A DNA stretch of 46,771 nt from a bacterium (GCA_013202285.1 JABMRV010000057.1:1-46771); one strand, 5' to 3'; positions 4,786-33,400 are shown, counted from the stretch's first letter. Notes: generated from the sequence alone by a model not told the origin. Translations and numbers: made by a program.

Positions 4786-4863
4786 TTTGGGCTCCCTGGT
4801 CAAGTGATGTTGTCGAGAAGAACTGAATGCTCTACGAGGTTTTAAAATGTGTGAAGTTTTTTG

Positions 4864-6504: not shown

Positions 6505-6512
6505 AAATCCTC

Positions 6513-8222
6513 CTAATACTCCTTTTTCTTAATCGGTAGTGTCACTATGAAGCGGGTTCCTTCTCCGATCACACTTTCGACTTCGATCTCCCCCCCTAAC
6601 TTGTGGACGATATCATTGGTTATTGATAACCCAAGACCAGTACCAAACTCACCTCTGGTTGAATAAAACGGCTCGAAAATGTGCTCAAGATTCTCCTCGG
6701 GAATACCGGAGCCATTATCGGATATAAAGATACTAACTATGTCGCCTTCACGCTTGGCGGCTGAGACATCGATTTTCCCACCATCCTCAACTGCTTTGAA
6801 CGCATTATTCAGTATGTTGAGAAATATCTGCTGCAGTTGACCCCGATCACTTTCAATCGCGGGAAAATCAGCGGGGAAATTACATTTAATGTCAATGTTT
6901 CGATGAAGGGCTTCTTTTCCGAGAAAGCCCGCTACTTCACTCATAAGATGATCCAGATCGATAAGCTCCTTCCCAACGTCCATGCGCTTGGCGAAGCCTA
7001 ACAATCTATGAGTAACAGCGCTGCACCTATCAACCGATTTATGAATAGAGTTGACGAGTTCAATCGTCTTTCCCTTACGCGGGTAATCCTCGCTGAATTC
7101 AGCAATGTCCTTTAGAAGTCCCGCCTTCTCATTGATTATGGCGAGTGGGTTGTTTATCTCGTGTGCCACACTCGCTGCCATCCGACCGATTGTAGCCATT
7201 TTGTTGGTGTATTCTATGTTATGAAAAGCCTTGGCGCGCAGCTGATCTGCCTCACGAAAACGTTTTACCAGATAGGTCGCTCGCCAGTACACGAAGAGCA
7301 ATATCAGGATCACGCAGAACAGTAGAAACCACAGCAGGTCAGATCGACGCGAAATCCAATGTCCGAAAGGACTTTCATGCTGTTTCAGTGCAATAAGTAT
7401 GAAAGGAGTATTCTTAATATGGGCATATCCGAAAGTTATCCATTCTCCATTCTTCTTGAACTCCTCTATTACTTCAAGGTTACGAACTGGAAAAGACACC
7501 TCGAAGTTCATCTTATCCAGAACACCACCGCTGAATGCGGATGAAGTCTGTAGTATTCCATCTTTATTGATAATGAACACATCCGTTGAACGACTTAGAT
7601 GTTGTGAAAAAATCTGCTCCTTAAAAAGATCCATATCAATGGTTGCTCTCAAAACATAAAACTCACCATTTTGCTTCTCATCCTTGACAGCTATGACAAA
7701 ATGAGGGAAATTCCTATACCCCATGAAAACATCGCTGACAAATACCCCGCGCAGGTTGACTTCATGGAACCAGGATTGATCCTTGTAATTCCTGCCTTTC
7801 AGATTGTAGGGACCACTGTAAAACAACTGCGCACCGTCAGAATCGATGAGACCGAGATCGATGAATCCACCGAACGAACTCTTCAGGTTGCGAAAGGTCG
7901 ATGATAGACTTGCCTCACTGTTCAATCCTTCGAAGTACTGTTCATTAACGATCAGGGTAAGCGCAGACCGTCGTTCCTCGACCATTAGCTCCAGCATGTT
8001 TTTTGTACTGGATATAATCCGGGAGATTCCATACCGGTTTTCCGCACTGAAAGCCTTCTGGTCGAGATGGTAGGTAACCACGGTCATTATCATCAGCGGC
8101 GTCAGCGCTAAAAGCAATGAAAACAGTATGGAAAAACGCTTGAAACGCCGGTATGATCGAACAATGTTGAAGGTCTGCGGCTGCTGGATGTGTTCGGTTT
8201 TTTTCCTGCCCAGAGATGGCAT
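6513..8222 (-). CDS. Membrane sensor histidine kinase with a periplasmic Cache-like sensor domain
   Basis: Two hydrophobic segments (FSILFSLLLALTPLMIMTVV and LLWFLLFCVILILLFVYW) flank a roughly 250-aa Cache-like region (GLIDSDGAQLFYSGPYNLKGRNYKDQSWF...). Kinase boxes follow: H-box SVAHEINNPLA, N-box NILNNAFKA, G1 ISDNGSGIP, G2 GTGLGLSI. Confidence 0.92.
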   Translation of the reverse strand: MPSLGRKKTEHIQQPQTFNIVRSYRRFKRFSILFSLLLALTPLMIMTVVTYHLDQKAFSAENRYGISRIISSTKNMLELMVEERRSALTLIVNEQYFEGLNSEASLSSTFRNLKSSFGGFIDLGLIDSDGAQLFYSGPYNLKGRNYKDQSWFHEVNLRGVFVSDVFMGYRNFPHFVIAVKDEKQNGEFYVLRATIDMDLFKEQIFSQHLSRSTDVFIINKDGILQTSSAFSGGVLDKMNFEVSFPVRNLEVIEEFKKNGEWITFGYAHIKNTPFILIALKQHESPFGHWISRRSDLLWFLLFCVILILLFVYWRATYLVKRFREADQLRAKAFHNIEYTNKMATIGRMAASVAHEINNPLAIINEKAGLLKDIAEFSEDYPRKGKTIELVNSIHKSVDRCSAVTHRLLGFAKRMDVGKELIDLDHLMSEVAGFLGKEALHRNIDIKCNFPADFPAIESDRGQLQQIFLNILNNAFKAVEDGGKIDVSAAKREGDIVSIFISDNGSGIPEENLEHIFEPFYSTRGEFGTGLGLSITNDIVHKLGGEIEVESVIGEGTRFIVTLPIKKKEY

Positions 8223-8270
8223 ACTGTCACACTTTATATGAGTTTATTAATGTTACAAAAATCTGATCGA

Positions 8271-9518
8271 TTATTGTTCCTCATCATCCTGCTGCTTCCT
8301 TTTCAATTCCTCTTTCATCTCATTTATTTTCTTATACGCCTCTTTCATCGTGTCGGTGAGGACATCAATATCGACCGGTTTATGAAGATAAGCAAACGCA
8401 CCCAGCTCCTCAGCCAGAGCCTGCTCACGTTCCGAACCGTGTCCGGTCAGAATGATAACTTCAATATTGGGATGCTCCCGTTTTACTCTCTTCAGCACTT
8501 CCAACCCATCGATACCGGGCATCTTGAGATCCAGAACCATAACTTCAGGTTCGTCCTGCTTAACGGATTCGAGCGCCTGCTCGCCGTCATACACGATTGA
8601 AGATCCAAGATTGCGCGCTTCCAGTCGTTCGGACAATGTATGAACAAATTCCTTCTCATCATCCACTAACAGTATCTTTGAGGGCATTGATAGTTTCTCA
8701 GATGGTATAATGGGAGGTGGTGTGAATTTCGGACCTATTCGAGTACGGATTTCCCTGACGCCATTTACACTCGAAGCGATCTGTTTCAGTTTCTTCCTAT
8801 ACTGCTCCAACCGGAGGACATATTTATTGATCTTTATGGTGATGAGACCATCAATTGCTGTAACTTCCTCATCAAGTCCGGCTTCCACGAGCGAGAGGTT
8901 AACCGCAGTAGCTAACTTGAAATCTTCGGCAGCCTTTTGGGATTCCGGAGTCGTCATCACTGCGTCTTTCCCAGCGTTTTCACAAATAATATCGACTGCT
9001 TCAGCAACGGATGTATCCTGCATGGGAATAATAATATCAAACAAGCTCTCATCGTAAGGTGATTTTTCATACAGGAACTTAGTCCATGCACCCAGTTCCA
9101 TATCATCCTTGCGAATGATTTTCTGCGCTTCTTTTTCCGACTTGTTTTCAACACTCATCAAACGGCTAACGCGATAGTTGAAATTGGCGATAACACACAC
9201 CCGCATTACGTATGTCACGGTTCGTGGTATGAGAAGTCCTGCAAAGTCGTGCAGCAGTTGATTGTCTTGTGTAACAAGTTCGGCGAGTACTACTTTAAGA
9301 TATGCAATATTCTTCTCTCGCTCTCTGGTTATTTTGTTCATAAGGGGAATACGACCAGCCATAGTGCTAATGAGCTTTTCAGCGGATACTCCATATCGCC
9401 GTAATACCTCGGTGAATAGTTTCTCATCCAGACGGTTGAGATTCAGTCTTTCAGCAACTTGCTGGACAATCTCATCACCACCACAGTATGATCCGCTGAA
9501 TACCGTGACGACAGCCAT
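8271..9518 (-). CDS. Hybrid response regulator: N-terminal cytidylate-kinase-like (Cytidylate_kin2-type) domain fused to a C-terminal receiver
   Basis: The N-terminus MAVVTVFSGSYCGGDEIVQQVAERLNL resembles the cytidylate-kinase-like family start, with a degenerate P-loop (no GK[ST]). The C-terminus KILLVDDEKEF...VMVLDLKMPGIDG...ILTGHG...AYLHKPVD is a receiver, followed by a charged coiled tail. It is the first gene of the operon. Confidence 0.8.
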   Translation of the reverse strand: MAVVTVFSGSYCGGDEIVQQVAERLNLNRLDEKLFTEVLRRYGVSAEKLISTMAGRIPLMNKITREREKNIAYLKVVLAELVTQDNQLLHDFAGLLIPRTVTYVMRVCVIANFNYRVSRLMSVENKSEKEAQKIIRKDDMELGAWTKFLYEKSPYDESLFDIIIPMQDTSVAEAVDIICENAGKDAVMTTPESQKAAEDFKLATAVNLSLVEAGLDEEVTAIDGLITIKINKYVLRLEQYRKKLKQIASSVNGVREIRTRIGPKFTPPPIIPSEKLSMPSKILLVDDEKEFVHTLSERLEARNLGSSIVYDGEQALESVKQDEPEVMVLDLKMPGIDGLEVLKRVKREHPNIEVIILTGHGSEREQALAEELGAFAYLHKPVDIDVLTDTMKEAYKKINEMKEELKRKQQDDEEQ

Positions 9519-12454: not shown

Positions 12455-15400
12455 GAAATCCAGACCACTCCCAAGAGCAGTCATATTTCACCCGCGGATG
12501 AGACTTATTATCAGGAGGTAATACAACCGGCGAAAGCGAGGGGATTACTGACCGAAGCGCAGAATGCTTTCCTTAAACAATACAAGGCTCAACAACGAGC
12601 CGTAGCGAGTCGTATCGTCGATTTCCAGCCTCCATCCCGTGACAATCAGGGTGGACCTGACGAGTCGGGTTACGAATGGCGGGACAGTTACGAGAGACAT
12701 GGTCCGACATACGGCTGGATCGATGTCAGCGGATTCGACGGCGTAATCGACATCGGAATGGGTGACGACACAAACCACGGACCGTTCGACCTCGGCTTCG
12801 ATTTCGTGTATTACGGCGAGACTTTCAACTCAATTCGGATGTGCTCGAACGGCTGGGCATCCTTCACATACGACGGTAGTGACTATCGGTGGACCAATTA
12901 CAACGGATTCCCTGGTGAAGGGGCTCCTGCGAATTTTTTCGCGGTCTGCTATATGGATTATGACCCTGAACTCGGCGGCGGCAGCTACTATTACTGGTCG
13001 GACGAGAATATGGCGGTTCTGACCTGGGAGAACATCCCCTATATCGGCGATGAGAACCTGCGCTGGAGCTACCAGATGATCCTGACCCCGGACGGAATGA
13101 TAACGTACCAGTATGCACAGGTCAGCGGACCGGAAGATGAGATTCTCGTCGGTTTTCAGAATGCCGACGGCAGTCTGGGATTCGCAATTGCGATGGGACA
13201 GCAAGGCTACCTCGAAAATGGACTGGCGATTGGTATCTCGGACAACTGGGTCGATGAGAGGGATGTGAGTGAGGTGGGGTATTTTGATACAGATGGGATT
13301 TCATATCATGTCGCTGTTGCTGGAAACTATTCCTTTATAGCAGATGGTGAAAGTGGTCTTAGAATAATTGACATATCTAACCCTGAGAATCCCGACGAAT
13401 TAAGTTCCATAAATACACCAGATGTTGCTCGTGATGTTGCGGTTCTCAACAACTATGCTTATGTGGCAGATTTTAGTAGTCTTCGAATCGTTGACATTTC
13501 TGATCCGGCGAATCCATCTGAGGTTGGATCATACGATACACCAGGAAATGCTATGAGCGTTTCTGTTCGTGGAAATTACGTTTACGTTGCAGACCTCGAA
13601 AGCGGTCTTCGTATAATTGATGTATCCGATCCTGAAAATCCTGATGAAATTGGGTTTTTTGATACCCCTGATAGGGCGTGGGGTGTCACTGTGATAAATC
13701 ATTACGCATATGTGGCAGATGATCAGAGTGGACTTAGGGTGATTGACATTTCAGATCCGGAGAATCCGAGTGAGGTAGGCTCTTACAACACCCTAGGAAA
13801 TGCTGGTGATGTCATAGTTGTTGGTGATTTTGCCTATGTGGCTGATGGCAGAAGTGGTTTACATGTAATTGATATTTCTGACTCTCAAAATCCGAGCCTG
13901 ATAGGAACATATGATACACCAGGTGGAGCTGGTGATGTTACTGTCATCGGAAACTATGCTTATGTTGCTGATGATCAAAATGGTCTATGTGTAATTGACA
14001 TTTCTGATCCGAACAATATGGAGGAGGCTGATGCTTACGATACACCGGGAAATTCATGGGGTGTTTTTGTAATCGACGATTATGCCTACGTTGCAGATCA
14101 GGAAAGCGGTCTCCGCATCCTCGACGTATCGGACTTCGAGAAGCCGGACATGGCGTTGTCAACTAACCAATTGGACTTCGGTGAGGAGTGGGTCGGTTAC
14201 AGCGATGACATGATCATCGAAATCCGGAACAACGGCGACGCCGACCTGACCGTATCGGACGTTCATGTTGGGGCGGTCGGCTTCAGTACCGATTTTAACG
14301 GCTGGTTTGTTGTCGAACCGGATGGTGTTCATCAACTGACCGTCACTTTTGCGCCCGAAGGAACGGGCAATTTGGGGGGGGGGCTGACTATTATTTCGGA
14401 TAATCCCGGCTGGATAGAACAGGGCATGGTCGATTTGAACGGCATCGGCAGGGACAACCCGCCGGTGATGGTCGTTAATCCGGACGCTATCAGCACGGAT
14501 ATCAATATACCGGACAGCGAAGAGCACACGTTGACGATTTCCAATGGCGGTAGTTCGGTCCTTGAATTCGAGATCTTTCACAGGACAACCAGCAGACCTG
14601 CACGCGATGAAAATGTCCGTACATTACGCAGTATCACCTCCTCTAATTCACCCCTCCGAAACCCAGGGGAAGTAATCGATCTTTCCACTCCTGAAAACAT
14701 GGATGTGAGCGAGGTCGGTGCTCCACGTCGAGACCAGTTGGAACCGGGTTTCCTTGGTCGATACTACCACACCCAGGCAGATGCCAGTCCGCCGTTCCCG
14801 GGAGAGCTGATCATGGAGCGCATCGATGATCTGATCAACTTCGACTGGGGCGATGGCGGTCCTGGCGGCGGCGTGAGGAATGACAACTTCGGCGCACGTT
14901 GGACAGCCTTGTTCACTGTTGAGGAAGCCGGAGAATACACCTTCCGGGTAACCTCCGATGACGGTCAGAGGCTATATATCGACGGACAGCGGATCATCGA
15001 CAACTGGGTTGACCATGGCATGGAGAATCACGACATGGCACTCGACCTCGAACAGGGCGACCACGAGATTACGTATGAGTTCTACGAGAACAGTGGAGGT
15101 GCCGGGGCTCAGCTCCGCTGGATGCCTCCCGGGGAGGGTCAGTTCGAATTCATGCAGGGCTTCCCGTTTATCCCGTGGCTTACATGCGACCCAAACGAAG
15201 GCACCATCGAGGCTAATCAACAGATGGATATAACCGTAACCCTGATAACCGATGATCTTATCGAAGGCAGATATGAAGCAGATATCATTTTCCAGTCGAA
15301 CGATCCGCGATATGAAGAACAAGGTTTCCGCGTTCCTGTGGTGTTAAATACCACCGGTACAGCTCAGATTGAAACTGCTTGGGAACCCGGTTACTTTCAG

Positions 15401-18400
15401 GATCCACCTGTTGTCAATTATAACGTGCAATATGATCCTGAACTATATACGGGTTTCCCCTACCGGATACCGGTCACCATCAGCAATACAGGTAGCGCAG
15501 ACCTTGAAATATCCGGAATTGCATCCGATGAAGATGCCAATCCTGTATTCACTGCAGAACCCACTCAACTGACTATACCACCCGATAGACAGGAAGTTGT
15601 GGACTTCATCTTTAATGCTCCTTTGGATGCACCGGGTGAATACATTGCTGATATGATAATCAGTTCAAATGATGCTGATGAAGTCGATCGGGAATTACAT
15701 ATTCCGGTTTACGCCCAACCTCTCGCCGCTCCTGTAATCACGGTTAACCCAAACAGTATCGAAACAACTATTGACATTCCAAATGAGGAAGTACACACCC
15801 TGACAGTCACCAACGATGGAGGAGTAGGACTTGATTTTCTGATCGAACATACAATAATCCGTGAGCCGGATCGTGATGCGGCGACGCGGGGGTTGCGTAG
15901 AGTTGATCGAAAGAATGTGCCGCAGCGTGATAATCCGGGAGATGAGCTGCGGTCATACAACGTACCATACAATAGTACTTCAGGTCTGGCATGGGACGGT
16001 GAACTGATGTGGGGAAGCGCGTACAGCTCACAGAGGCTGTATGCCCTTGATCCTGAGAATGGTCAGGTTGTTTATGACGTGGCGGTAGGATATTCTCCTC
16101 TGGCGATGACCTTCGACGGCGAACTGCTCTGGGTTGGAGTCTGGCCGGGAAGCAATGTCCGGCTTTATGACCTCGAAGGCAACCAGGTTGAATCGATCAA
16201 CATGCCCTCCTCACCGGTTCACGGTCTGGCTTCAGACCTCGAGAATTACGTATTCCTCAATTCAAACCACACGATTCGGGTCCTCACAATTGACAATCGA
16301 CAGCAGGTCGGTTCCTTTAATCCCAGCGGGGCGATGGCGAATCAGGATTTCTGGAATATTCTGTGGGTGCCCGAGCATCCCGACGGACAACTCTGGGGAC
16401 TGTATCAAAACCGGATGTACCAGGCTTTCGTTGACGAAGATAACAACTGGGCATCCCAGGCTGTTCAGAATTTCGGCATCCGCACAGAATATCAACATGA
16501 CGGTATTGCTCACGATGGTGAAAACATATGGTACGGCATGTGGAGTCCGACAACATGGTATGTGATTGATGATGGTGTTGAAGAATTACGCTGGCTTACT
16601 TACGAGCCGACTGAAGGTTCGCTCGGTTCTGATGAAAGTATGGACATTACCGTTACACTCAATACTGAGGGACTGATCCAGGGCATCTATGAAGCTGACA
16701 TGATCTTCCGGTCCAACGATCCGCAGTATAACGAAGAAGGACTGATTGTTAACGTCCTGATGAGCACTGTTGGAGAGGTGCAAATAGATGTGAGCTGGGA
16801 ACCCGGCTTCGGTGACAATCCACCGGTGGTGGATTTCAACCAGCAGTTTGATCCGGGTTTGTTCACCGGCATCGAGTACCGAATCCCTGTCTTGATTGCC
16901 AATACAGGTAACGCCCACCTGGAGATTACCAACATTGCATCTGACGAACAGGGAGAACCTGTTTTCACCGCTGCTCCCACCGAGTTGATCATCCCGCCCG
17001 ATGGTGAGGAAGTCGTCGAGTTCATCTTCGCCGCACCTCTCAATTCGCCGGACAACTACAACTTCGACATGATAATCTATTGTAACGACATTGACCAGGC
17101 TGACCAGGAGTATCATATCGGTCTGCATGCTGAAGTTGATCTGCCCCCGGTAATAACCGTAACCCCGGATTTGATCGAGGATGAGCTGATCACCGGTGAA
17201 TCGGCACAGCATCAGGTAACACTCGGTAACGACGGTCCATCGACGCTCTGGTACACCAGCGATGCTGTAGTTACCGATCAGCCCGGGAGGGATGTCAATG
17301 AGCGCACTTTGCGGGAGGTTAAACTTACGGGACCGCGCCGTGACAACCTGGGTGATCAGATTGCCACGTTCACCTGGAATCGTGCTCCGGTCAATTATTA
17401 CAAGGCTGGCGCTTCCTATGACCCGGAGACCGGTCGGATGTGGGTTTCAACTTACATCCCCAACTGGCTGGGCGCCATAACCTTTGATGAAGAATACCAG
17501 GAGTTCACTGAGGATGTTCAATCCTGGCAACCCGGTGCACAGAATCCGATGAACATCGCCTGGCTGGACGGCGTTCTATATGTCGTTGCCTGGTCGAACC
17601 AGTGGATCGGCAGGTGGGACGCCGACCGCACCAACCTCGGCAATCTCGACATGCCGCGACATCCAACCGCTATAACGTCCAGCCAGGAAAATGGCTGGTT
17701 AATAACAATTTCTGATGCGGATTGGAACAATCTGAACTTCTATACAGTAAATGGAGACCAGGTGAGCGAGATCCATCGCGTCAACTGGCGGCAGGGACCG
17801 ACAGCCAATCAGCTCAGTCGTGGAATTGGCTGGGTTGACAAACACGATGAAGGTCAGATCTGGATTAACACTCTCAATCACATCTACCAGATGTATGTTG
17901 ACACTGAAAACTGGGATCAGACTGCCACGCATGTCTCCGACTTCGCCTGGAATAACGGCAATCACCAATGGGCTGGAGTGGGTCATGATCGTTTCAACCT
18001 TTGGCTGGGAGCTTACGGACAGCCAAACTGGATTATATATGACGACGGCATTATGGAGCTCTACTGGTTTGACTGGGATCCGCAGGAGGGCTCTATCGAG
18101 CTGGACGGTGAGGAGATCATAACGATTTTCCTGGATGCGGCTGGATTAAACGAAGGTCTTTATGCGGTCGACCTGCATATTCTCTCGAATGATCCCGATA
18201 GTTCCGACGTGGTGGTTCCCGTTTCGATGAATGTGATCGGGATGGCACATATTGATGCGGTATGGGCGCCAGGATTCGATCAGGATCCCTCGGTCGTCGA
18301 TTATAACGTCATGTTCGATCCGAATCTGTTCACCGGTTCGGAATACAGGATTCCCGTTACCATCTTGAATCTGGGAACGGCGAGGCTGGACATATCCGAT

Positions 18401-21400
18401 ATTTCTTCCAGCGAAGAAGCCAATCCCATGTTTACCGCCGAACCTCTCGAACTGCAGATCGCTCCGGGTGAGGAAGATGTTGTCGATTTTATCTTTGCCA
18501 CACCTCTGGATTCTCCCGATGATTACAACTTCGATATGATAATCTATAACAATGATGTCGATGAGGCAGACCGGGAGTATCACATTGCCCTGCATGCCAA
18601 TGTTAACAGACCACCGGTGATCTCGGTCAACCCGCAGGAAGTTATCGATGAGTTGAGTACCGGCGCGGTTGCTCATCACGAGATAACCGTCGATAATCAG
18701 GGTGAGTCGCTGCTGTGGTTTATTGCTGAAATAGATGTAACAGGTGAACCCCAGCGAGATGCCGGCATGAGACCTTTGCGGCGAGTCGGCAGTGCTGCCG
18801 GAACCGGTCGCGACCGCCGGGTCGAACCAGACGACATGGGCTATGAGTGGCGCGACAACCTCGAGGATGACGGTCCGGAGTACGAATGGCTCCTTCGTGG
18901 CGATTTCGAAAACGTACGCGAATGGTCTCTGGGCGATGACGCCAACACCGGCGCACTCCAGCTTGGTTTCACCTTCCCATTCTGGGATCAGGAGTATAGC
19001 CAGGTTTATCTCGACACCGACGGCTATATGTCGTTCACCTATGCGGGGACGCAGTATAACTTCTCAGGAGAGATTCCAAATTACCCGTTGGCTGCCAATC
19101 CGGGAAGCCCAAACCACTCCATGATAGCGCAGTACCAGACCGACATGACGTCGGGAACGGAGATATGGTACTGGACTAACGAGGAAGATATGGCGGTGAT
19201 GTGGTGGGCGGGGAATCATCAGTACTATCACCAGGTCATCCTCTATGACAATGGTTATGGTGTCATGCAGTACGGTCAAAATGCCAACGGCAGATCAGCC
19301 TACGTGGGGATTAACCTCGGCGACGGCGAACATGGCTGGTATGTCGCCGCGCCTGACCAGAATTACCTCGTTCCCGGGCGGGCAATTGCCTTTGGTCCGG
19401 CTAACGTCTGGTCGATCTGGATAACACTTGACCCGCTGGAGGGCGATGTACAGCCCGGAGCTGATCCGATGGCGCTCGATATGACTCTCGATGCCTTCGG
19501 TCTCGATGAAGGTCAATACACCGCGGAAGTTCTGTTCACATCGAACGACCCGGAGACGCCCGGGGTGATACTCAACGTTACTATGAATGTAATAGGTGCA
19601 CCTGACATCCTTCTCGAATGGGAACTCGGCTGGGTGGAAGATCCCTTTGAGGACAGCATCATCGACTGGAACGCTTATTTCGATCCCGATTTATATTCTG
19701 GTTTCGATTATGAAATTCCTGTCACTGTAACAAACGAAGGCGTAGTTCCTCTTGAGATTACTGAAATATCATCAAGTGAAGGTGGAGACCCGCTCTTTAC
19801 ATCCAATCTAATTGATGTGCTTACTCTCGATCCGAATGACCAGGCAGTCGTCACCCTCACATTCAATTCCGTGAATCCAGGCGACTTCGGAGCCGATGGT
19901 GATGAGCTCTATATGGTATTCTACTCCAACGATCCGCTTGATCCGGAGGTCAACGTTCGAGTGCATGCGCAACCGGTTGGACCACCTGTAATGGTTGTGG
20001 ATCCTGATGCAATCCAGACCGAGATTGCTATACCCGGCAGTGAAGAACATGTCCTTACGGTGACCAACAGTGGTGATAATATCCTTACCATCGAGATCGA
20101 AAAGGAGATCCTCGCCATGCCGGAGAGGATGCCCGCAGATCGCGACGTAATCTCCCGTACACTGCGCAGCGTTAACCGCGATGAACCTCGTCGAGATGCT
20201 CTTGGTGACCAGTTGGGAGAATATACCTGGAATAATGCACCGATCAACAGGTACAAGAATTGCGCTTACGACTATAATAACAAGTGGATGTGGCTCGGTA
20301 CTTATAGCACGAACTGGATCAAGGCAATCTCGTTCGATGATGATTATCAGCAATTCACTACCGAATTCAACGACTTCCGACCTGCCGGAAACCCGATGGA
20401 TATGGGCTGGTATAACGGTATCCTCTATGTCCAGCCCTGGGCTAACAACTTCTTGCTAAGATACGATGCCGATGGTAACAATCTCGGCAACGCCAACTTT
20501 AACTTCCGTCCTGCCGGAGTGGCGTTCAGCCACAAGATGGGTTTGATTTTCGCGCTGGAGGACTCACCAGACAACAACCGGAACATCCATGTTATGGAGA
20601 TAGATGAAAACGGGTATCCAGATCAGCAGATCGGTTTGATCGACAACTACCGTCCGATGTGCAACAACCAGTGGATGCGTAACGTCGAATGGGTCGATGC
20701 ACATCCCGATGGTCAGTTGTGGATACACACCTCCTCGAGGGCGCTCTATCAGATCTCGGTTGACACGGATAACTGGCAGGCGATCGAGCTCACTTCACAG
20801 TTGTCCAACTTCGGCAGCAACCAGGAGTACGACGGAGTTGCGCACGACGGGTACAACCTGTGGCACGGCGGTTATAGCCTGGATCGCTACTACATCATCG
20901 ATGATGGGGTTGAAGAGATTTACTGGCTGATATTTGAACCTGATGAGGCTACTCTTAACGCTGACGATAGTACCGAGATTCACGTTTATCTTAACACTGA
21001 GGATCTCATTGAGGGCAGATATGAAGCCGATCTTGTATTCACCTCAAACGATCCGCGATACCAAGCGGAAGACTTCCGGGTCAATATCGTATTGAATACC
21101 ATTGGAGAAGCCCAAATTGAAGCGACCTGGGTTCCCGGCTGGGATGAACAGGATCCGGTCGTCGATTACAATGTCGCGTTTGATCCCGACATGTTCAGCG
21201 GCGCTTCATATACGATTCCGGTTATTATCGCGAATATTGGCAATGCCAATCTTGAGATAACGAACATCCAGTCGGATGAAGGTGGAGCTCCGGTGTTTAC
21301 CGCAGAACCTACCGAACTTGTGATCCCACCAGACAACGAAGAAATCGTCGTATTCAGATTTGAAGCTCCCATCGATGCACCGAACAACTACAATGCCGAC

Positions 21401-24400
21401 ATGATCGTCTATTGCAACGACGCCGACGAAGCGGATCAGGAGTATCATATCGCGCTGCATGCTGATGCCGCAAGCCCACCGGTGATAACCGTCGATCCCA
21501 TGGAAATCATAGACGAGCTGACAACCGGTCAGGTGGTCGAACATGAAGTCACGGTTGGTAACGACGGACAGTCAACGCTTCGTTTCACGTCGGAGTTCGA
21601 GATAACACAGGAGCCCGGTCGTGATCTCGGCGGAAGAAGCCTGCGCAGCGTCCATCGTACTGGACCGCGACGCGACGCCGTTGAGGATATCCAGGATATG
21701 ATGTTCGCCGTTATTCAGGACGGGGAAGCCTGGGGATGGCTCGACGACGTGATGATGCAGCAGGATCCTCTCCTCGACAGGAACGCGAACTATGTTACTT
21801 TCAGAACTGCAGACACCTGGAACAGTATTGATTTCGAGGAATATGACGTCATTGTTTACCCCGGCAATCGTCAATCCGCCAATTTCTACACTGCTTATAA
21901 CAATAACCTCGCACGGTTCACCGAATATCTTGACGACGGAGGTGCTGCTTATACGGAGACCTCGGATAGTAATGCTCCGATCCGCACTCCCGGCGGATTC
22001 AACAACGACCAGGGAGGCGCTTCCAACGGTGTACTGGTAGTCAGTCCCAATCCTCAGGATGACAATTACAGTTTATTTGCCGAGATCTGCCAGAGTACAC
22101 AAAACAACAACTGGAACGAAGGGGAGGTTATCGAGGGCAATTCATGGCTGCATGGATCATATTCCATCGGTCAGTTCGATAATGCCGTTGGCAATGGCAC
22201 TATCGAATGGTACCAAATGATAGCCACTCCGCAAGGATCTCAACATGCCGGAGCGATAGCTTATGGTTTAGGTGACGGCTGTGTACTCGCAGTGAGTCAC
22301 CCTATCGGTCACTGCTGGCGGTACTATAATCAGGAAGGTATGTGGGGCGGCATCGCTGCTGAGATTCTCTACTACCTTACTGAATCTGTTGCCGAAGGTT
22401 GGTTCAGCCACGATCCTGTAGAAGGCGAGATTCAACCTGGCGGCGATCCTGTAGTGATAATAGTAACACTCAACGCCGCAGGATTAGATGAGGGTGACTA
22501 CGCCGCTGAACTGCGGATTAACTCCAACGATCCCATCGATCCGCAGGTGATAGTCGCTATTTCTTTCACTGTCACCGCGGCTCCGGATCTGGTTCTCGAA
22601 TGGGAGTTGGGCTATGTGGAAGATCCGTTCGAGGACAGCATACTCGATTGGAATCTTTATTATGATCCTGACTTCTATACCGGCGTTGATTATGAAATAC
22701 CGGTTACGGTTATGAACGAAGGAGTCATAGCGCTTGAGGTAACCGAAGTCTCTTCTTCGGAGGAGGGCGAACCGCTTTTCACATCCGATCTTGCCGATGT
22801 GCTGACACTTGCCCCGGGGGAGGAAGCGGTGGTTACGCTGACTTTCTATTCCGATCAGGCTGGCGAATTCGGCGCTGACGGTGAAGAGCTTTACATGGTC
22901 TTCTATTCGAACGATCCGAACGAAGAGCAGCTTACCGTGCGGGTGCATGCCACAGTTATCGCGGGTCCGAATATCCTGGTTGACCCACAGGCGATTGAAG
23001 ATGCCATGATGACACTGCATACCTCCAACCATCTCCTCACCGTTGGAAATGACGGCGGTAACCCGCTTCGATTTGAATTTGAATTGGAGGTATTGGCTGA
23101 ACCGGAACGCGACATTGCTTCTCGTACATTGCGCCGAATACATCGGGGCAATCCACGACGAGATGCTCTTGGTGACCAGTTGGGAGAATACACCTGGAAT
23201 AATGCCCCGATCAACAGGTACAAGAGCGCCGCTTACGACTTCAACAATGAATGGATGTGGCTCGGTACTTACAGCCCCAACTGGATTAAAGCTATCTCGT
23301 TCGATGATGATTACCAACAGTTCAACACCGAATTTAATGATTTTCAACCTGCCGGAAACCCGATGGATATGGCGTGGTATGACGGCATACTATACGTCAT
23401 TCCCTGGGCAAATAATTTCTTGTTGAGATATGACTCACAGGGCAATCGTCTCGGCAACGCCAATTTCGGTTTTCAAACCTGCGGGATTGCAGTTAGTCAA
23501 GAGCTTGGTCTGCTCTTTGTTCAAGAGACCTCACCCAACAACAACCGGAACATCCATGTTGTAGAGATAGATGAAAACGGGCTTCCCGGTCAGCAGATCG
23601 GTTTGATCGACAACTACCGTCCAATGTGCAACAACCAGTGGATGCGCAACTGTGAGTGGGTCGATGAACATCCCGACGGTCAGTTGTGGATACATACCTC
23701 ATCGAGGGTGCTCTACCAAATCTCGGTTGACACGGATAACTGGCAGGCGATCGAGCTCACTTCACAGTTGTCCAACTTCGGCAGCAACCAAGAGTACGAC
23801 GGAGTTACGCACGACGGGCTCAACATGTGGCACGGCGGTTATAGTATGACCAACTATATCATTTTCGATGATAACGTCGAGGAACTCCGCTGGCTCATGC
23901 TCTATGAAGACGACATTTCTCAAGCCAATCCGGCGGACTGGGTAGTGGTTAGATACAATGAATATGAAATCGAGCCCAATCAGGAGTTGATTTTCACAGT
24001 ACGTTTGAATTCAACCGATCTGCTTGTTGGTGATTATGAGGGAATAGTCCACATCTTCAATAACGATCCGAATATCGAAGAGCAGGATTTCGAGGTTCCC
24101 GTTCTGCTTCACGTAACAGGTATAGCCCAGGATATCGAGGTTTCATGGGCGGAGGAGAATGGTTTCCCAACTTCGATCGACTGGAACAGTGCGCACGAGG
24201 AATTGTACGTCGGTCAGCCTTACGATATGATTCTCACCGTTGGGAATTCAGCGGACAGTGACGGCGATCTTGTCATCGAGGATATTGTTGCAGACGATAA
24301 CAGTTTCTCAATCGATCCGGTCGGATTTACACTGAGCTCCGGCGAAACGCAGGATGTGATAATAACATTTGAAACTGCAGACGTCCCCGGTGAGTTCGAA

Positions 24401-27400
24401 GCGGTTCTGACCCTGTTTTCCGACGACCCGGACGAGGCTGAGGTTGACATAGCCCTCTATGCCCGAGCATATCATACGTTGAATATAGAGGTTGATCCGG
24501 GCGCTCTTACTGAGGAGCTTTATACCAACCTGACTACTGATCGCCGTCTGCACCTCACCAATGTGGGTAATGATAACCGCCACTTTTCAATCAAACACGA
24601 ATTCACCCTTGCACCTGAGCGTGATGAGAATGAACGTTCTCTGCGCCGTATCGATCCCGAAGCGTCGGGACCGGTGCGTGATGCGGTTGGGGATGCGCTG
24701 TACAATGTGCAGTCACCTATTGCCAGTAATCAATACCGGAACCTGGCATACGACCCGGATCTTAACTGGATGTGGCACCAGCAGTATTATTCTCCTTATC
24801 AGATGGTAGCCTGGGATCTTAACGACTTTACTCCCGGCGATGATGCCGCGCCTCCGGTGGTTCGCCAGTGGAACAACCCACGCGGCAATCCGATGGACCT
24901 GGCATTTCATGATGGCACCATCTATGTCATGCACCTCTGGAATGCCTGGCTCGGTCGCTACGACATCGACGGTCAAGATCTCGGCGTCATGAATCTCAAT
25001 CTCGACGGAGGGAGAGTAAATGGCGTGGCTATATCTCACAGCCTCGAGAGGCTGTTCGTAACCTCGGACGCTAGCCCTTACAACGTGTATGTCTTCGACC
25101 TGCAGGGCAACCGGATTGCCAATATGGGGAGTCTGACCGCTCGAACAGGCAACAACGTCTGCCGGTCGATTGAATGGGTCGATCAGCACGATGACGGACC
25201 GCTGTGGGCGCATCGCAGCAACAGGGTCTGGCAGATAGCTGTCGATACCGAAAACTGGCTGATGACTTCCACTCCGCTGAACTTCGCTACTGTAGGGGAG
25301 CAGGAGTATGATGGAATTGCACACGACAGGTACGACCTCTGGATTGCGGGTTATAACAGCCCCAGTATATTTGTTTATGATGACGGTATGATCGAATACT
25401 ACTGGTTGTTATACGACCCAGATGAAGGAAGCCTCCAGGAGAACGAGGATATGTACATTACGGTCACTTTCGATGCCACCGGGCTTATCGAAGGCAGATA
25501 TGAGGCTGTGCTGATCATCAAACCGGAAGACCCGGATATTTACACACTTGAAGTACCTGTTTCACTGGATGTGACGGCAGCGTCCGACATTGCCGTAAAA
25601 TGGGACAGCGAGATCGGGTATCCGGAGCTTGTCGATTGGAACGCCGAAGCCGCTTATGGCGACCAGGTGTTCACGGGAAGTCAGTACGACATTACCGTTA
25701 CCGTAGAGAATATCGGCGTGATCCCGCTTAACGTGGAGGGAATTTCTTCCGACAACCAGGTGTTCACTGCTGACCGCAATGTTATCAGCAACATCGGTCC
25801 TGGTGAAGAAGTTGATGTCACTCTGACCTTCGAAGCTGCCGATCCTGGTGACTATCAGGCAGCCGTTACTTTCACGACCGATTCCGAGATTCACCCCGAA
25901 CTGGTGATCGGACTACACGCCAATGCACCGAACCCGCCTTCTATAGCCTTGAATCCCGAATCTATCGAGACAACTCTGGGGTATGACGAAAAGGAGGATC
26001 ATGCACTCTTCGTGATTAATAACGGCGGAGCAGACCTGATCTGGAACACGGAGATTGAGTTCCTTTCCGAACCGCAGCAAATACCGCAGCGCGACATCAA
26101 ATCCCGTACCCTGCGCAGTGTAGGGAGATCTTCCGGTCCGACCCGTGATAATCCCGGTGATATCGTTGAAACATTCAGTTGGGCTCGAGCCGGTGTCAAT
26201 GTTTACAAGTCTGGTATTATATGGGAAGAGGAAAACGAATTACTGTGGGTCAATAACTACAGCAACGGTCAATGGGTTGGCGCACTCGATCCCGAGGACA
26301 ACTACCGTGAGGTTCGAGCATTCCAGACATCCGGTCAGAACGGTATGAATATGATTATGCGAGACGGCATAATCTGGACTATACCCTGGCCGAACGCTTG
26401 GATCGGCAGATGGGATCGCAACGGCAACAACATGGGCAATGTAGCTAATTCACCGCGACCAACAGCAATGACATACTGTGCGGAAGAGGATATTCTGATT
26501 ACCATCTCCGATCAGGAAGGTGGAGGCATTCCTGCCTGGGATATGCGTTTCTATGAGATAAACGGCGATCAGCTTAACATAGTTGGAAACTTCAACTACA
26601 AACAGTTTGCAAATAACCAGAACAGCCGTGGAATCGGCTGGGTTGAGAAGCATCCCAATGGTCAATTGTGGATAAATACACCAAACCACTTATGGCAGGT
26701 CAAGATTGATATGCGCAACTGGGAGATCGAGGAACTGGTGCAGGATTTCAACTGGAACAACGCCGGTTATGAATGGGCTGGTATCAGTCATAATGGTCAT
26801 AACCTTATTCTTGGGTCACATAACTCTGCAACTTATTTTGTTATGGATGACGGTGTAGCCGAGCATTACTGGTTATCGAATGAGCCGATGGAAGGTGTTG
26901 CCACTCCGGAGGACAGCAGTGAAGTTACGGTCACACTTGATGCGGGTTCACTGCCCGCCGGTGATTACGAAGCAGATCTGCATGTCTTCTCGAACGATCC
27001 TGATACAGGCGATTTAGCCATATATGTTCTGCTGCACATCGCTGAGGTGCGCAATCTTGTCGCATCACCCGATTCGCTGCATTTCGGCGAGGTTCTCGTT
27101 GACTCATCAGGCGATATGACGCTGACGTTGATCAATGCCGGTAACAGTGATCTGACCGTATCGGACATGACCATCGAGGGAAACTACTTCAGCATTGATT
27201 TCCAGGATGCATTTGTGATCCCGCCAGGTGACGAAATAGATATGACGGCAACTTTCGCTCCGGGGGATGAGGGAGTTTTCGTGGGTTCCCTGACCATCAC
27301 GTCCGATGACTTCGAGGAAGAGCAGACAGTTATTCCGTTGATCGGGTGGAGCAGACCGCGCATGCCCAACATCTATGTGCTGCCTATGACACTCGACTTC

Positions 27401-30400
27401 GGCGAAGTGTATGTCGCTGTTCCTGAAGACCGGATTTTCCGCATCGGAAACGATGGCGACGGTCCGTTGCGTATAACCAACATTTTCGCCGATGAGAACT
27501 ACATTGAAGTCGATTTCGCCGGCGAGTTCGTCGTTCAGCTCGGCGAGAGCCGCGATGTGACCGCAACCTTCACGCCTCAGCAGCCCGGAGCTATTCAGGC
27601 GACGATAACGATTGTATCGATCTATGACAACGAGGAGGATAATTACCTCGTCGATGTGGTCGGTGTGGGTATCGATCCTCCGGTGATAGTTGTAAATCCG
27701 GACTTAATCGATACTGATATGGACTATGAGGATGAGGAGCAGCATGTAATCACCGTCTATAACAATGGCGGATCAGTTCTTGAATTCGATACCAATCTCG
27801 ACATTCTTCAGGAACCGCCTCGCGACGCCGTCGGGGATCGTCGTCTGCGGCAGCTCCGTCAAGCCGGTCCTGTAAGGGGTATAAACAACGACCGTGAGAT
27901 CGAAGTCCCGGATGCCACTGTTCAAATGAATGTGAAAAACGGCGATGCTTCTCCTGCAGAACTGGAATTGTGGGAGAGCTATCTCAATCTGTTAGATGAG
28001 CTTGCCGATGTTCCACGTCGGGATCTGCGCGGGGAAGCTGACGACGCCGGTTACGAATGGCGTGATGACGCGGAAGCGGACGGTCCCGAATATAACTGGA
28101 TCGACATCACCGGTGACGGACAGCGTCTGAATGCCGCTGATGACTGGAACAGTGGAGTTCTCGAATTCGGCTGGGATTTCCCATACTACGGACAACAGTA
28201 CGATGCAATGAGAGTTTGTTCCAACGGCTGGATTACCCTTGACCGCAATTACAGTGGAAATGCCATCAACCTGCCTCGACCGGTTAATGCAGCCGCTCCG
28301 AATGCCCTGTTCTTAATCAATAACTATGACCTGAACCCCGGCGCTGGCGGCTCGATGTACTTCTGGACGAACAACATCGATATGGCTGTGATGAGCTGGA
28401 TCGACGTTCCCAGATACGGCAACAACCAGCAGCGCAGCACTTTCCAGATTGTACTGGCAGGAGACGGCTTCATTAAGTACCAATACGGAACACAGCAGAA
28501 TGCCGACGGTTCAGAATCCAACATAGGCTGGGAGAACCCGAACGGACAGCTCGGAGCGAGCATCATCTACCGTGAAGACGGACGGATCAGCGAGGGTTTG
28601 GCAATCGGAATCGGCACCGGAGAGATGTGGGGACAGTGGCTGTTCTGGGAGCCGCACATGGGATCGGTCAATATCGATGGTAACCTCAATATCACCATAA
28701 CGCTGCGCGCCGGAAACCTGCCGCCGGGAGACTACATTGCAGAACTGCACATTCTTTCAAACGACCCCGATATTCCCGATGTCATCGTCGATGTAACGAT
28801 GACAATCAACTCGCTGCGCGATATAGCAGTCAATCCGCTTGAACTTGATTTCGGCGAGGTACTGGTTGCCGATGCGGGAGAGATGACCATAGACATAGAC
28901 AATGCCGGGAACGTCGATCTGACGATTTCGAATGTTACGATCGACGGTAACTATTTCAGCTCCGATTTCGCCGGTGAATTCGTTCTCGGAAGAACTGCCA
29001 GCAGTGTCCTGACTGTAACATTCACTCCAGATGCTGAGGGCAGCCATGCCGGAACCTTAACCATCACCTCGAACGATCCCGATGAAAGTGATGTCGTTGT
29101 GGATCTGCTCGGTACGAGTCGTTTCCCGATTGCAGATATTATTGTCTCACCCGAAGCGCTGAACTTCGAGACGGTGTTCGTAGGTCAGAGCAGAGATCTG
29201 ACATTCACTATCGGTAGCGAGGGAGAGGATGACCTGCGGGTGTCGAACATCACCGTCGATGGCAATTATGTAACGACCAATTTCGAGGGAGAATTTACAC
29301 TTGCTCCCGGACAGCAGCGTGAATTCAGCGCAACATTTGCTCCTGAAGCGGAGGTGATGTTTGTCGGCGAGATCTTAATCGAGTCCAACGATCCTGATCA
29401 TCGCAACGGATATTCTCTCGAAATCCGCGGCACCGGCATTAATCCGCCGGTGATAGCGGTTAATCCCGGTTTCATCGACACCGATCTTAGTTACGGCGAG
29501 ACGAACGATTACCGGGTTGTATTGTCCAACAACGGTGGAGCCGATCTGATCTGGGACAGCGAACTTGAGATCGTCAGAGAAGCAATTGGCGGGAGATACT
29601 GGATTGATTGGGCTCCGGAGAACGGCACGGTTAGTGCAGGAGCTGACCAGGATCTGATCATCACTCTCGACTCAGACCTGCTGATAGGCGGCGCTTATGA
29701 AGCAAACCTGCACGTCACATCCAACGATCCGGAGAATGCTGATGTAATAGTAAGTGTCCTCCTGCACGTAATCGATGTTCCGAACATCGACCTGTCTGAA
29801 TCAACGCTGGAATTCGGTAATGTGAACGTCGGCGATGAGGATCAAATGTCGCTGTGGATATACAACAACGGCAACGGCGCGCTGACTGTTTCGGATATGG
29901 TGATCGACGGCGTCAATTTCGTTGCTGATTTCGACTGGGAATTCGAGATTGTCCCCGGAGACAGCGCAGAGGTGTTAGTATGGTTCTCACCGGCGGAGAT
30001 CAGTGCAGTTGAAGAGATTATGACCATCATCTCCAGCGATCCAGACGAGTGGCGAATACACGTTCCGATGACGGGAACCGGCATGGGAGCTGTTATCGTC
30101 GCCTCACCGACCGAACTCGACTTCAGAGAGGTCTTTGTAGGTGAGAGCAGGGATATGACGCTAACAATTCACAACGTCGGCAACGAAGATCTTGTCGTAT
30201 CCGAAATGGTGGTCGAGGGTGTTTACTTCAGCCTCGATTTCGGAGGTGAATTCATTGTCCAGCCTGACGGTCAGTATGATATTACTGTAACTATGATCCC
30301 CGAAGAAGATGCTGTATTAACAGGAGTTATCACCATCGTTTCCAACGATCCGTTCGAGGAAGCTGGATACGAGGTAGAAATCGGCGGCATCGGTGTCGAT

Positions 30401-33400
30401 CCACCTGTGATAGTGGTCGATCCTCAAGCCATCGAAGCACAACTCGCATTGAACGAGCAGGATGAGTATGTCGTTACCATAGCCAATGAGGGCGGATCGA
30501 ACCTTATCTGGACGACTGAATTCGATCTCATCCGGGAACCCAATCGTGATAACCGCAATCGCAACCTGCGGCGTGTCGGACCGCAGTTGCGTCAGATAGA
30601 GGCTCCCTCTGCCGCGTTGCAGGACAGAGTCAAGCAAGGCAATGCGAACTTACTTGACAGAATGAAATGGGAGAACTATGTCTCGCGGTTGGAAACGGAT
30701 GCAGACCGACCGCGAAGGGACCGCCGCAACAATCCCGACGGTTATGGTTATTACTGGATCGACAGTGATGAACACGGCGATCCGGAATTCGATTGGATCG
30801 ACATCAGTCAGGAAGGTCAGAGATTGAACGCCAGCGATGACTGGAACAGCGGCGTTATCAACCTGGGATGGGATTTCCCTTGGTATGACAGCGAATACAG
30901 CGCCATTCGCGTATGTTCCAACGGCTGGATTACATTCGATAGAGATTACTCAGGAACCGCCGTCGATCTACCGCGACCACTGAACGAGGCTGCACCGAAT
31001 GCTGTTCTGATGGTCAACAACTACGATCTTAATCCCGCCCAGGGCGGAGAGATGCGCTACTGGACAAATCATGCCGATATGGCAGTCGTAAGTTGGACGG
31101 ACGTACCTCTCGACCGGAATGCCGGTGTGATAACCACATTCCAGGTGATCCTGTATGCGGATGGTTTCGTCAAGTTCCAGTATGGACCTCAGCAGAACTC
31201 AGACGGTTCACGCAGCAATATCGGCTATGAGAGCCCCGACGGGCAATATGGTGCGAGTATTATCTACCGGGAAGGCGGTCGAGTCCATGCGGGACTGGCG
31301 ATCCAGATAGTTCCAGCGCTCGCAACTGAGCGCGGCTGGATTTCCTACAATCCTACCGGAGGTGTGGTTGACAGGAACGACATGCAGGAGATGATCGTCT
31401 CATTGAACGCCGAGAATCTGGATCTGGGAGATTATGTGGCGGACATTCATATTTTGTCAAACGATCTCGATAACAGTGATGTAACGTTCAACGTATTCCT
31501 GCAGGTCGGAAGTGTTCCCGACATAGTAGTTGATCCAGAGGCTCTTTCACTCGGTGAGGTCGAAGTCGATGGCAGCGGCGATTCGACGTTAACCATCAGC
31601 AATATCGGTGATGAGATTCTCACCATAAGCAACATGTACGTCGAAGGGAACTACTTCAGTATCGATTATAATGACGATCAACTGATTATTCAACCGGGCG
31701 GCGAGTATGAACTGACGGTGACGTTCAGTCCCGTTGCCATAGCCGAGCTCTCAGCAGCGCTGTTTATCATCTCCGACGATCCGAATGAGGGCGAACTTGT
31801 CGTTCCCCTGACGGGAGTCGGGCTCGGTGAAGGCTGGGTAATACTCGATGATAATGATCCGGTAAATATCACCACACATCTGAGCGACTACTACTCACGA
31901 ACGTCGTTTACCTCTGCCGGTACGTTCGAGCTTCGTCATCTTCGCATCATGCCCTTCAATGCTGGTCCGAATTTCGATGCTCCGTGCTTCATTTACCTTT
32001 TCAATGAGGACGAAGATCATAACCTCGATGAACGTATCTGGACTTACAGGATCAATCGTCTTGAAGCATGGAATGTTAATGATTTCGACGCCAACTGGAT
32101 AACGCTCACCATACCGGAAGCGTTCTGGCACAGGTTCACGACAGGTGAATCGTTCAGCATCATCTATGGAGCGGCTCCCGGTGGAGAGTTCGTCGAACAG
32201 GAGGGCTACGGCTGGTGGAACCTGTACGATGTGGAAGCTAACGCTCATCGCAGCTATGTTTCGACGTCGCTGACCAACGACCATCGCGTCTGGGAAGATG
32301 GCGAGCTTGACGGCGATCTGTTCATCCGCGCCGGAGGTATCTATACCAATACTATCCCCAACCGTGAACCGGTTTGGGTGGACGTGCCTCAGCCAATCCA
32401 GGTCGATGATGGTTCGCTGATTGAATTCACTGTATTCGGTGAGGACGAGGATGAAAACGAAATTCTCACCATCGAATACTTCTCCCGTGACCTGCCCGAT
32501 GCCGTGGACTTCACCGATCACGGCAACGGTAGCGGTACGTTCTCATGGCATACAACGTTCGATGACGCGGGTGAATACTTTGCCATCTTCACACTCAGTG
32601 ATGGAGAACTGGAAACGCAGACTGAAGTCCCGATTACTGTGAATGACGTTAATCGCCCACCGATCTGGATCGATCCTCCCGAATCGGTCGTCGTCGATGA
32701 AGGTGAAATCCTCGTGGTTGACATGCGCAGCATCGACACCGACAGAGATTCCTTGACAGTCGTTGTCGATCTGGGTGATCTACCCAACAACGTGGTTCTC
32801 GATCCTCGCGGCAGCGGGAGAGTGCTCCTGATCTGGGAGCCCGGCTTCGAAGATGCTGGGATTTATCCGGTATCATTTACTGTTTCAGATGCCGAATTCG
32901 ATGTGACCGCTGAAGTAGCGGTAGTAGTTCGAGATGTAAATCGCCCGCCCGTGTGGGTTGAATATCCTGAGAATAACACAGTGGATGGCTATGTCCAGCA
33001 GGATCTGAACATCATACTGCAAGCTGTCGATCCTGAGGGTGGACAGGTGCAATACCGCTGGGAATACGCCGCTGATCCACCTGCCGATCCGCAGGTTGAA
33101 ACCGCGGTCGTCGCTGAAAGGTTCGATTTCACCATGTCGCCTACTCTTCGAGAGTCCGGTGAATACTACGTGCGATTTATTGCTTCTGACGGCGAGACTG
33201 AATCAGCGATCATAATACTTGTCAATATACGTCCCGACCATTATATCATCCGTCCCTCAGGTGCGGCTCACATACTGTTGCTCGATCGGGTAGTCTATTA
33301 CGGCGAGAGCCTTGTCGAAGGCGGTGAAATCATCGGTGATGTCACCTTCGATGAGATCGGTGTGTTTACGCAGGAGGGTATCGTCTGCGGCGCCTTCCGT

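Follow-up and report, generated by a model that had tools for sequence, protein, structure and literature searches.

What does a domain do that recurs along a giant secreted bacterial protein and that no curated library recognises? This question is raised by a bacterial DNA stretch of 46,771 nucleotides (GCA_013202285.1, JABMRV010000057.1:1-46771; the whole stretch is called the window here), which encodes a protein of 10,052 residues with six copies of a module of 225-245 residues, and a smaller neighbouring protein with a seventh. The repeated module is real, and its copies are predicted to fold as five-bladed beta-propellers. The reading preferred here, with a probability of roughly 0.55, is that the module is a ligand-binding propeller displayed many times on a fibre exported by the type IX secretion system (T9SS). 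The two open reading frames (ORFs) and the seven copies, whose refined limits run from the R of RDxxGD at the N-terminus to the W of DDGxxExxW, are as follows.

12371-42529, plus strand: giant ORF of 10,052 residues, by ORF call and translation
1246-4803, minus strand: neighbouring ORF of 1,185 residues from the TTG at 4803, or 1,179 residues from the ATG at 4785
15923-16594, plus strand: propeller copy 1, giant residues 1185-1408, 224 residues; short subtype, like the neighbour's copy
17336-18067, plus strand: propeller copy 2, giant residues 1656-1899, 244 residues
20189-20926, plus strand: propeller copy 3, giant residues 2607-2852, 246 residues
23156-23893, plus strand: propeller copy 4, giant residues 3596-3841, 246 residues
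24674-25405, plus strand: propeller copy 5, giant residues 4102-4345, 244 residues
26141-26872, plus strand: propeller copy 6, giant residues 4591-4834, 244 residues
3871-4554, minus strand: neighbour propeller copy, residues 84-311 counted from the TTG at 4803, 228 residues

A first-pass annotation, made from the sequence alone, had proposed six copies in the giant protein and one in its neighbour. A hidden Markov model (HMM) built from the seven segments named there and run on both proteins reproduced this count, with exactly six full-length copies in the giant protein (matches at residues 1180-1413, 1651-1905, 2602-2858, 3591-3846, 4097-4351 and 4586-4840) and one in the neighbour (79-316); the earlier coordinates were off by at most about 35 nucleotides. 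The seven segments align end to end. In pairwise BLASTP comparisons with the database size set to 1e8, copies 3 and 4 share 82% identity (E 1.6e-152) and the remaining pairs 24-42% (E 1e-60 to 1e-5), apart from three weaker pairs, among them copies 5 and 6 with the neighbour's copy (E 0.2 and 0.003, respectively), which are nevertheless connected via the other copies. Twenty columns are invariant across the seven: an N-terminal P-x-R-D-x-x-G-D, one Asp and then W-V-x-x-H-x-x-G-x-x-W, followed by Q...D..N, G..H and, at the C-terminus, D-D-x-x-x-E-x-x-W. The three motifs by which the copies had originally been recognised, a blade-like element, a Trp- and His-containing signature and a closing element, are all present.

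The fold was predicted with AlphaFold2 for copies 1 and 3, using the seven window copies as input alignment. The models reached a predicted local distance difference test score (pLDDT) of 79 and a predicted template modelling score (pTM) of 0.80 for copy 1, and 80 and 0.84, respectively, for copy 3. Both are all-beta and comprise five blades of four strands, 20-21 strands in total. The strand order consists of one N-terminal strand, four four-stranded blades, a three-stranded fifth blade and a short C-terminal helix, indicating a five-bladed propeller in which blade 5 is completed by the N-terminal strand. The propeller fold that had been suspected was thus recovered in both models, and each copy is predicted to be a five-bladed propeller. 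In Foldseek searches against the PDB, copy 1 matched the type I glutaminyl cyclases 3mbr, 2iwa/2faw, 3nol and 3nok with template modelling (TM) scores of 0.69-0.73 (3mbr best, 0.73), and copy 3 matched the same cyclases at 0.58-0.66 and Escherichia coli YjiK (3qqz) at 0.59/0.62. The PDB matches that span query and target in full are five-bladed proteins only, namely the type I glutaminyl cyclases and, for copy 3, YjiK; partial matches (TM about 0.5 or below) are given by WD40, NHL and YncE structures, as would be expected of proteins with six to eight blades. In BFVD, similar five-bladed propellers are also found among phage baseplate and tail-spike proteins (TMq 0.63-0.72), a weak analogy that might point to a recognition role.

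The first-pass annotation could not assign the module to a named family, and it lies outside the curated libraries: no Pfam-A or NCBIfam model reaches its cutoff on any of the seven copies or on 36 diverse relatives, and the sub-threshold matches are to beta-propeller families throughout (SGL, DUF6923, Glu_cyclase_2, NHL and Lactonase). The module and its PxRDDxGD / RxLR linker are not described in the papers covered by a literature search. When a profile of the seven copies was scored against a library of 1.84 billion protein cluster representatives, 3,814 representatives matched at E<=1e-3, 607 at E<=1e-10 and 182 at E<=1e-30, with a weak tail that takes in generic propellers. The best 150 proteins contain 275 full-length copies, up to eight in one protein (up to ten matched stretches in the profile search), and 213 copies were left after removal of pairs at least 55% identical. 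The exact signature WV[DPE]xHP[DEN]G[QP][LI]W is found in 51 of the 275 copies and the relaxed form W[VI]xxHxxGx[LIMF]W in 206. As a DNA pattern, W-V-x-x-H-P-[DN]-G-Q-L-W gave no match in viral contigs.

Many of the relatives are proteins of 2,000-6,900 residues. Small relatives of 385-690 residues consist of a signal peptide, an immunoglobulin (Ig)-like domain, PxRDDxGD, the propeller and a further Ig-like domain in that order, and the order Ig, PxRDDxGD, propeller, Ig is kept even in proteins of 385-564 residues. In addition, a compact group of relatives of about 1,180 residues represents orthologues of the window's neighbour protein. The organisms named for relatives are a Calditrichota/'Calditrichaeota' metagenome-assembled genome (MAG), Candidatus Hatepunaea meridiana (Candidatus Electryoneota, Fibrobacterota-Chlorobiota-Bacteroidota (FCB) group) and an unclassified 'bacterium'. 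An abundance of secreted proteases has been reported for MAGs of Electryoneota (PMC9324843). The public names of the relatives are generic or drawn from other domains: 'hypothetical protein', 'T9SS type A sorting domain-containing protein', 'DUF1573...', 'choice-of-anchor D...', 'S8 family serine peptidase' and, on two of them, 'sugar lactone lactonase YvrE' and 'beta-propeller fold protein YncE'. A locus search with four copies as narrow peptide patterns returned 7 loci in 3 MAGs; since the patterns were narrow, few loci were found and the taxonomic range is under-sampled. A word-indexed protein search gave no match with copy 3 alone and only 4 matches with a 36-sequence profile. Such an index appears to miss domains within giant proteins, for which the exhaustive profile search worked. 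Of the window's own DNA, 80-85% of the sampled words are present in two freshwater-metagenome runs. Judged by these sequence comparisons, the module represents a new propeller domain family, uncovered by curated libraries, in Calditrichota/Electryoneota-type bacteria. Curated libraries miss a domain family present in hundreds of very large secreted proteins of poorly known FCB-group bacteria, and a family model with boundaries, blade count and face map would allow better annotation of giant genes that are now 'hypothetical' or 'T9SS sorting domain-containing'.

Both window proteins carry export signals. The translations show a hydrophobic, signal-peptide-like segment at the N-terminus of the giant protein and a hydrophobic segment, taken as a signal peptide, at that of the neighbour. 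The giant protein ends in a sorting domain of T9SS type A; Por_Secre_tail scores 30.3 bits on the giant protein and 43.6 bits on the neighbour (cutoff 27), and the TIGR04183 sorting-domain score is 29.6 (cutoff 23). By C-terminal sorting domain and N-terminal segment, both are predicted to be T9SS cargo. The giant protein contains many Ig-like domains (HYDIN/ASH/choice-of-anchor D, Big_9, He_PIG and cadherin-like), together with seven LVIVD repeats and one PA14 domain. Its N-terminal half repeats a unit of about three Ig-like domains, a linker and an inserted module, and its C-terminal half consists of Ig-like, cadherin-like and tandem-95 repeats up to the sorting domain. In the neighbour, the order is signal peptide, Ig-like, PRRD linker, propeller, Ig-like, CarboxypepD_reg, a second propeller-like region and the T9SS sorting domain. 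Giant modular T9SS/adhesin-type surface proteins resemble the giant protein in the C-terminal sorting domain, the long Ig-like runs and the interspersed PA14, cadherin-like and LVIVD modules; what sets it apart is the propeller module with its PxRDDxGD / RxLR linker, which is absent from Pfam, NCBIfam and the searched literature.

The linker is rich in Arg, has three parts of the form EPxRD - x3-4 - RxLRxV - x3-6 - PxRDxxGD and stands ahead of nearly every inserted module of the giant protein, propeller or other. The slot that follows it holds the propeller six times, as well as PA14, a 'GYEWRD' module and one further module without family match. The linker is also kept on other contigs, and RxLR is present in 127 of 244 upstream regions of relatives. 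In the window, it is found at the following places.

15866-15922, plus strand: linker ahead of copy 1, PDRD-AAT-RGLRRV-DRKNV-PQ, then RDNPGD
17282-17335, plus strand: same three-part linker, ahead of copy 2
20132-20188, plus strand: same three-part linker, ahead of copy 3
23102-23155, plus strand: same three-part linker, ahead of copy 4
24614-24673, plus strand: same three-part linker, ahead of copy 5
26084-26140, plus strand: same three-part linker, ahead of copy 6
Near giant residues 743-789, 2127-2150, 3082-3103, 5149-5220 and 6057-6120: similar linkers

The distribution of conserved and variable positions bears on which part of the propeller might serve for binding. Strands A-D were labelled from the DSSP assignment of the copy 1 model, and column entropy was calculated over 142 diverse copies, with the following means.

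D-A loops: 3.39 bits
B-C loops: 3.37 bits
C-D turns: 2.40 bits
A strands: 2.33 bits
A-B turns: 2.19 bits

By blade, the mean is 2.36 bits for blade 4, 2.24 for blade 5 and 2.68-2.84 for blades 1-3, and the lowest-entropy segments are the N-terminal RDxxGD (1.24 bits) and the C-terminal DGxxExxW (1.85 bits). H1336, H1381, D1382, D1401 and E1405 (giant-protein numbering) are 94-99% conserved over the 142 copies and invariant in the seven window copies, and the RDxxG part, directly ahead of the closing strand, is 94-98% conserved. Faces were assigned by strand order and propeller convention, with the D-A and B-C loops on one face and the A-B and C-D turns on the other; most of the length variation falls on the face of the D-A and B-C loops. 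Both termini are modelled to lie on the conserved A-B/C-D face, which would give the topology of a plug-in domain whose variable face points away from the carrier chain. The idea of diversified binding surfaces on a common scaffold, put forward in the first-pass annotation, is supported by the contrast between loop and turn entropies; that these surfaces bind is an inference.

Copies 3 and 4 allow selection within the module to be examined. They lie within a larger duplication (giant residues about 2350-2860 and 3344-3850), in which the Ig-like parts are 59-68% identical. Between the two propellers, the ratio of nonsynonymous to synonymous substitution rates (dN/dS) is 0.13, with dS 0.85, and the flanks are saturated at synonymous sites. 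In a sliding window, third-codon-position identity is 0.83-0.97 over giant residues 2735-2839, 0.57-0.77 over residues 2600-2690 and about 0.35 near residues 2690-2734 and in the flanking Ig-like domains. The observation that these two copies stand out from the high divergence of the others is correct (82%), but they are not uniformly less diverged; instead, they show mosaic, gene-conversion-like tracts. Since third-position identity is mosaic, recent conversion is favoured over slower divergence, and the pattern is best explained by recent intragenic gene conversion or recombination. The alternative that copies 3 and 4 are simply under tighter constraint was rejected on the same mosaic.

As a separate observation, one contig of the run X2 joins position 20622 to 23590, an in-frame skip of 2,967 nucleotides (989 codons) with 33 shared bases at the junction, which falls inside the high-identity tract of copies 3 and 4. 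It may be either a real recombinant lacking one cassette or an assembler jump.

The mechanism proposed for the module can be outlined as follows. Each copy, a self-contained five-bladed propeller of about 225-245 residues, is inserted into a T9SS-exported surface protein with an Ig-like domain on either side. The chain would enter through the conserved P-x-R-D-x-x-G-D, and the outermost strand of blade 5 would be laid first, closing the ring once blades 1 to 5 have been built; it would then leave through the D-D-G-x-x-E-x-x-W turn and a helix adjoining the entry, so that both termini would be on one face. The same face would also bear the conserved A-B and C-D turns, to which the H of WVxxHxxGxLW and the HDG of HDGxNLW belong, and would serve structural closure and docking towards the Ig stalk. 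The opposite face, formed by the D-A and B-C loops, would be the ligand-binding surface. With six different propeller faces, PA14, LVIVD and other modules along one fibre, multivalent attachment or capture could be achieved, the probable targets being glycans or proteins on particles or other cells. The face map singles out surfaces that would be relevant to attachment to particles, prey or substrates. The propeller is a familiar kind of domain in a giant adhesin-like protein, and no general principle is changed by it. Several points count against a binding role. The module has no known ligand and no characterised relative, and its near-invariant residues (two His, several Asp and one Glu) could make up a site for metal binding or catalysis instead of a structural clamp. 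That copies 3 and 4 are under purifying selection speaks for a function but not for which one. Also, the models were built on only seven aligned sequences, with a pLDDT of about 80, and the top and bottom faces follow from strand order and convention, not from coordinates.

It is unlikely that the propellers are passive structural beads, which would space or stiffen the fibre or shield it from proteases, with loop variability as neutral drift. Giant repetitive surface proteins often contain spacer domains, and the concentration of conservation in core and closure elements, together with a variable face that carries no conserved surface motif, would suit such a part. However, a stalk is already supplied by the Ig-like domains, and the slot in question alternates with recognised binding-type modules such as PA14. 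Divergent copies are retained in one protein, a single copy is also found in small secreted proteins, and the dN/dS between copies 3 and 4 is 0.13.

An enzymatic function in place of ligand binding is quite improbable. The His/His/Asp/Asp/Glu cluster would then be a metal-dependent or acid-base site and the giant protein a multi-catalytic array, whose activity would resemble either that of glutaminyl cyclases, in diverged form, or that of lactonases/lyases. The closest fold is indeed that of an enzyme family: type I glutaminyl cyclases (PF05096; 3MBR, 2IWA/2FAW, 3NOL, 3NOK) are, like the module, single-domain five-bladed propellers of about 230-250 residues, and module and cyclase structures match with TM scores of 0.58-0.73, normalised both ways, at 12-18% identity. 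Profiles of SGL/lactonase, virginiamycin B lyase and Drp35 propellers also match weakly, and H1336, H1381, D1382, D1401 and E1405 are near-invariant. Type I glutaminyl cyclases hold a structural calcium ion on the propeller axis (PMC7948796), and an axial calcium site would fit the conserved Asp/His that occupy the A-B turns in blades 1, 4 and 5.

The catalytic residues do not follow the fold. In the papaya cyclase CpQC, E69, N155 and K225 of the active site are strictly conserved in orthologues and Q24 in most (PMC5837995). PDB sequence searches returned no cyclase among the matches at E<=10 with the seven-copy profile and the neighbour copy, or among the 60 best listed matches with the 36-sequence profile; a residue-level alignment of the active site was therefore not available, and the test for catalytic residues was an indirect one on the 142-sequence non-redundant family alignment. 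In this alignment, Lys reaches at most 23% in any column, Glu exceeds 54% in a single column, E1405 of the C-terminal cap (94%), and Asn exceeds 45% in a single column, N1385 of blade 5, so that E69, N155 and K225 of CpQC are without conserved counterpart. Throughout residues 1215-1266, a span that covers the latter half of blade 1 and the part of blade 2 ahead of its C-D turn, conservation stays below 60% at every position. Glu_cyclase_2 scores 10.2 bits on the neighbour copy (cutoff 22.3) and gives a sub-cutoff match in 2 of the 36 diverse members (best E 5.6e-4). The glutaminyl-cyclase comparison of the first-pass annotation holds for the fold, where it provides the best match, but fails for sequence and catalytic set, and identity as a glutaminyl cyclase is rejected. 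The cyclases are stand-alone enzymes, whereas the module is set between Ig-like domains up to about ten times per protein. More generally, variability is greatest in the loops of the face that usually carries the active site, the conserved residues of the module lie at the A-B turns and termini beside the points of attachment to the Ig-like domains, and the matches to enzyme families cover generic blades only (profile positions about 12-150) and stay below Pfam cutoffs.

Propellers of the NHL/YVTN/YncE type and SGL propellers share generic blade sequence features with the module. The family profile matches the archaeal S-layer YVTN protein 1L0Q (E 2e-15), the Pizza and Tako designs, Brat NHL and virginiamycin B lyase in the PDB, all over profile positions of about 12-150 only; blades 4-5 and the termini of the module stay unmatched, and these propellers have 6-8 blades against five here. 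Membership in the six-bladed SGL / SMP-30 gluconolactonase family (PF08450) fails on the sub-cutoff score for copy 1 (20.7 bits over 51 residues; cutoff 26.3) and on the five blades of the models. Membership among the six- or seven-bladed NHL/YVTN (YncE-like) propellers fails as well, with similarity restricted to generic blades and five blades in the module; the Pfam NHL model matches 2 of the 36 members, with a best E of 0.0041. The loose comparison with NHL/YncE that had been drawn earlier is therefore sound for the generic blades, but not for blade number or family-level sequence matches. YjiK (SdiA-regulated, PF06977; 3QQZ) is five-bladed and similar in size. It has no significant sequence relationship to the module (PF06977 matches one family member weakly, E 0.015) and is a stand-alone protein of enteric bacteria.

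Two more speculative proposals concern the conserved face and the linkers, and together they are about as improbable as an enzymatic function. The first is that the closure-face cluster (R/D of PxRD, H of WVxxH, HD of HDG, DD of DDG and E of ExxW) forms a metal or catalytic centre; the second, separately, is that the RxLR...PRRD linkers are processing sites. If either were true, the protein of 10,052 residues would be a polyprotein or a multi-enzyme array that brings many propeller units to the cell surface, and Calditrichota/Electryoneota-type bacteria would have a new enzyme or maturation system of their own.

A polyprotein in the strict sense, in which an Arg- or dibasic-specific protease cuts the Arg-rich linkers EPxRD...RxLRxV...PxRD and Ig-plus-propeller units are released or rearranged on the surface, perhaps by analogy with gingipain/HagA adhesin processing, is very doubtful: it draws on the three-part linker ahead of inserted modules, on its retention in relatives (RxLR as counted above) and on the name S8 family serine peptidase given by NCBI to one relative with about ten copies, but there is no experimental or proteomic evidence for it, RDxxG adjoins the closing strand and may simply be part of the fold, and conserved linkers can have purely structural roles. 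The Arg-rich linker could still act as a processing or recognition site, and such cutting would concern maturation and be compatible with a ligand-binding role of the propellers.

Beside the propeller, two further modules of the giant protein were noted. The GYEWRD module begins with G-Y-E-W-R-D...G-P-x-Y-x-W-I-D, has a weak match to Pfam NIDO as its sole library match and occupies the same post-linker slot in three of four copies. The other occurs once, after a PRRD linker, and had no Pfam or NCBIfam match at the thresholds used. Their positions are as follows.

About 12650-13240: GYEWRD module, giant residues about 95-290
About 18830-19400: GYEWRD module, giant residues about 2155-2345
About 28040-28610: GYEWRD module, giant residues about 5225-5415
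About 30740-31300: GYEWRD module, giant residues about 6125-6310
About 21670-22390: third module, giant residues about 3100-3340

The second propeller-like region of the neighbour protein lies at residues about 505-760 (window about 2524-3291, minus strand). It matches weakly to the generic first three blades of the profile, without the blade 4-5 signature, and the corresponding region in the neighbour's orthologues behaves alike; as a generic-blade match only, it was rejected as an eighth copy. The neighbour is a member of a conserved orthologue family of proteins of about 1,180 residues, and an exact-sequence look-up of the protein itself gave no record. The gene contexts of two orthologues have no informative gene in common, and nearby there are only other T9SS cargo genes; on the comparison of these two contexts, a conserved gene neighbourhood was rejected.

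The giant ORF contains a tract of ten G at 14374-14383 (codons 668-671), the only homopolymer of at least 8 nucleotides in the window. Contigs of two independent freshwater-metagenome runs have one G fewer, which places a stop codon directly after ...NLGGG. Either the giant surface-protein gene is switched by phase variation at this tract, or the difference is a sequencing error in the homopolymer. The interval from the neighbour gene to a SulP transporter gene upstream of the giant gene holds, at 5466-9518 on the minus strand, two histidine-kinase ORFs, one of 223 residues with only a sub-threshold HisKA match and one with the full dCache-HisKA-HATPase arrangement, and a protein in which a response-regulator receiver is fused to a cytidylate-kinase-like domain.

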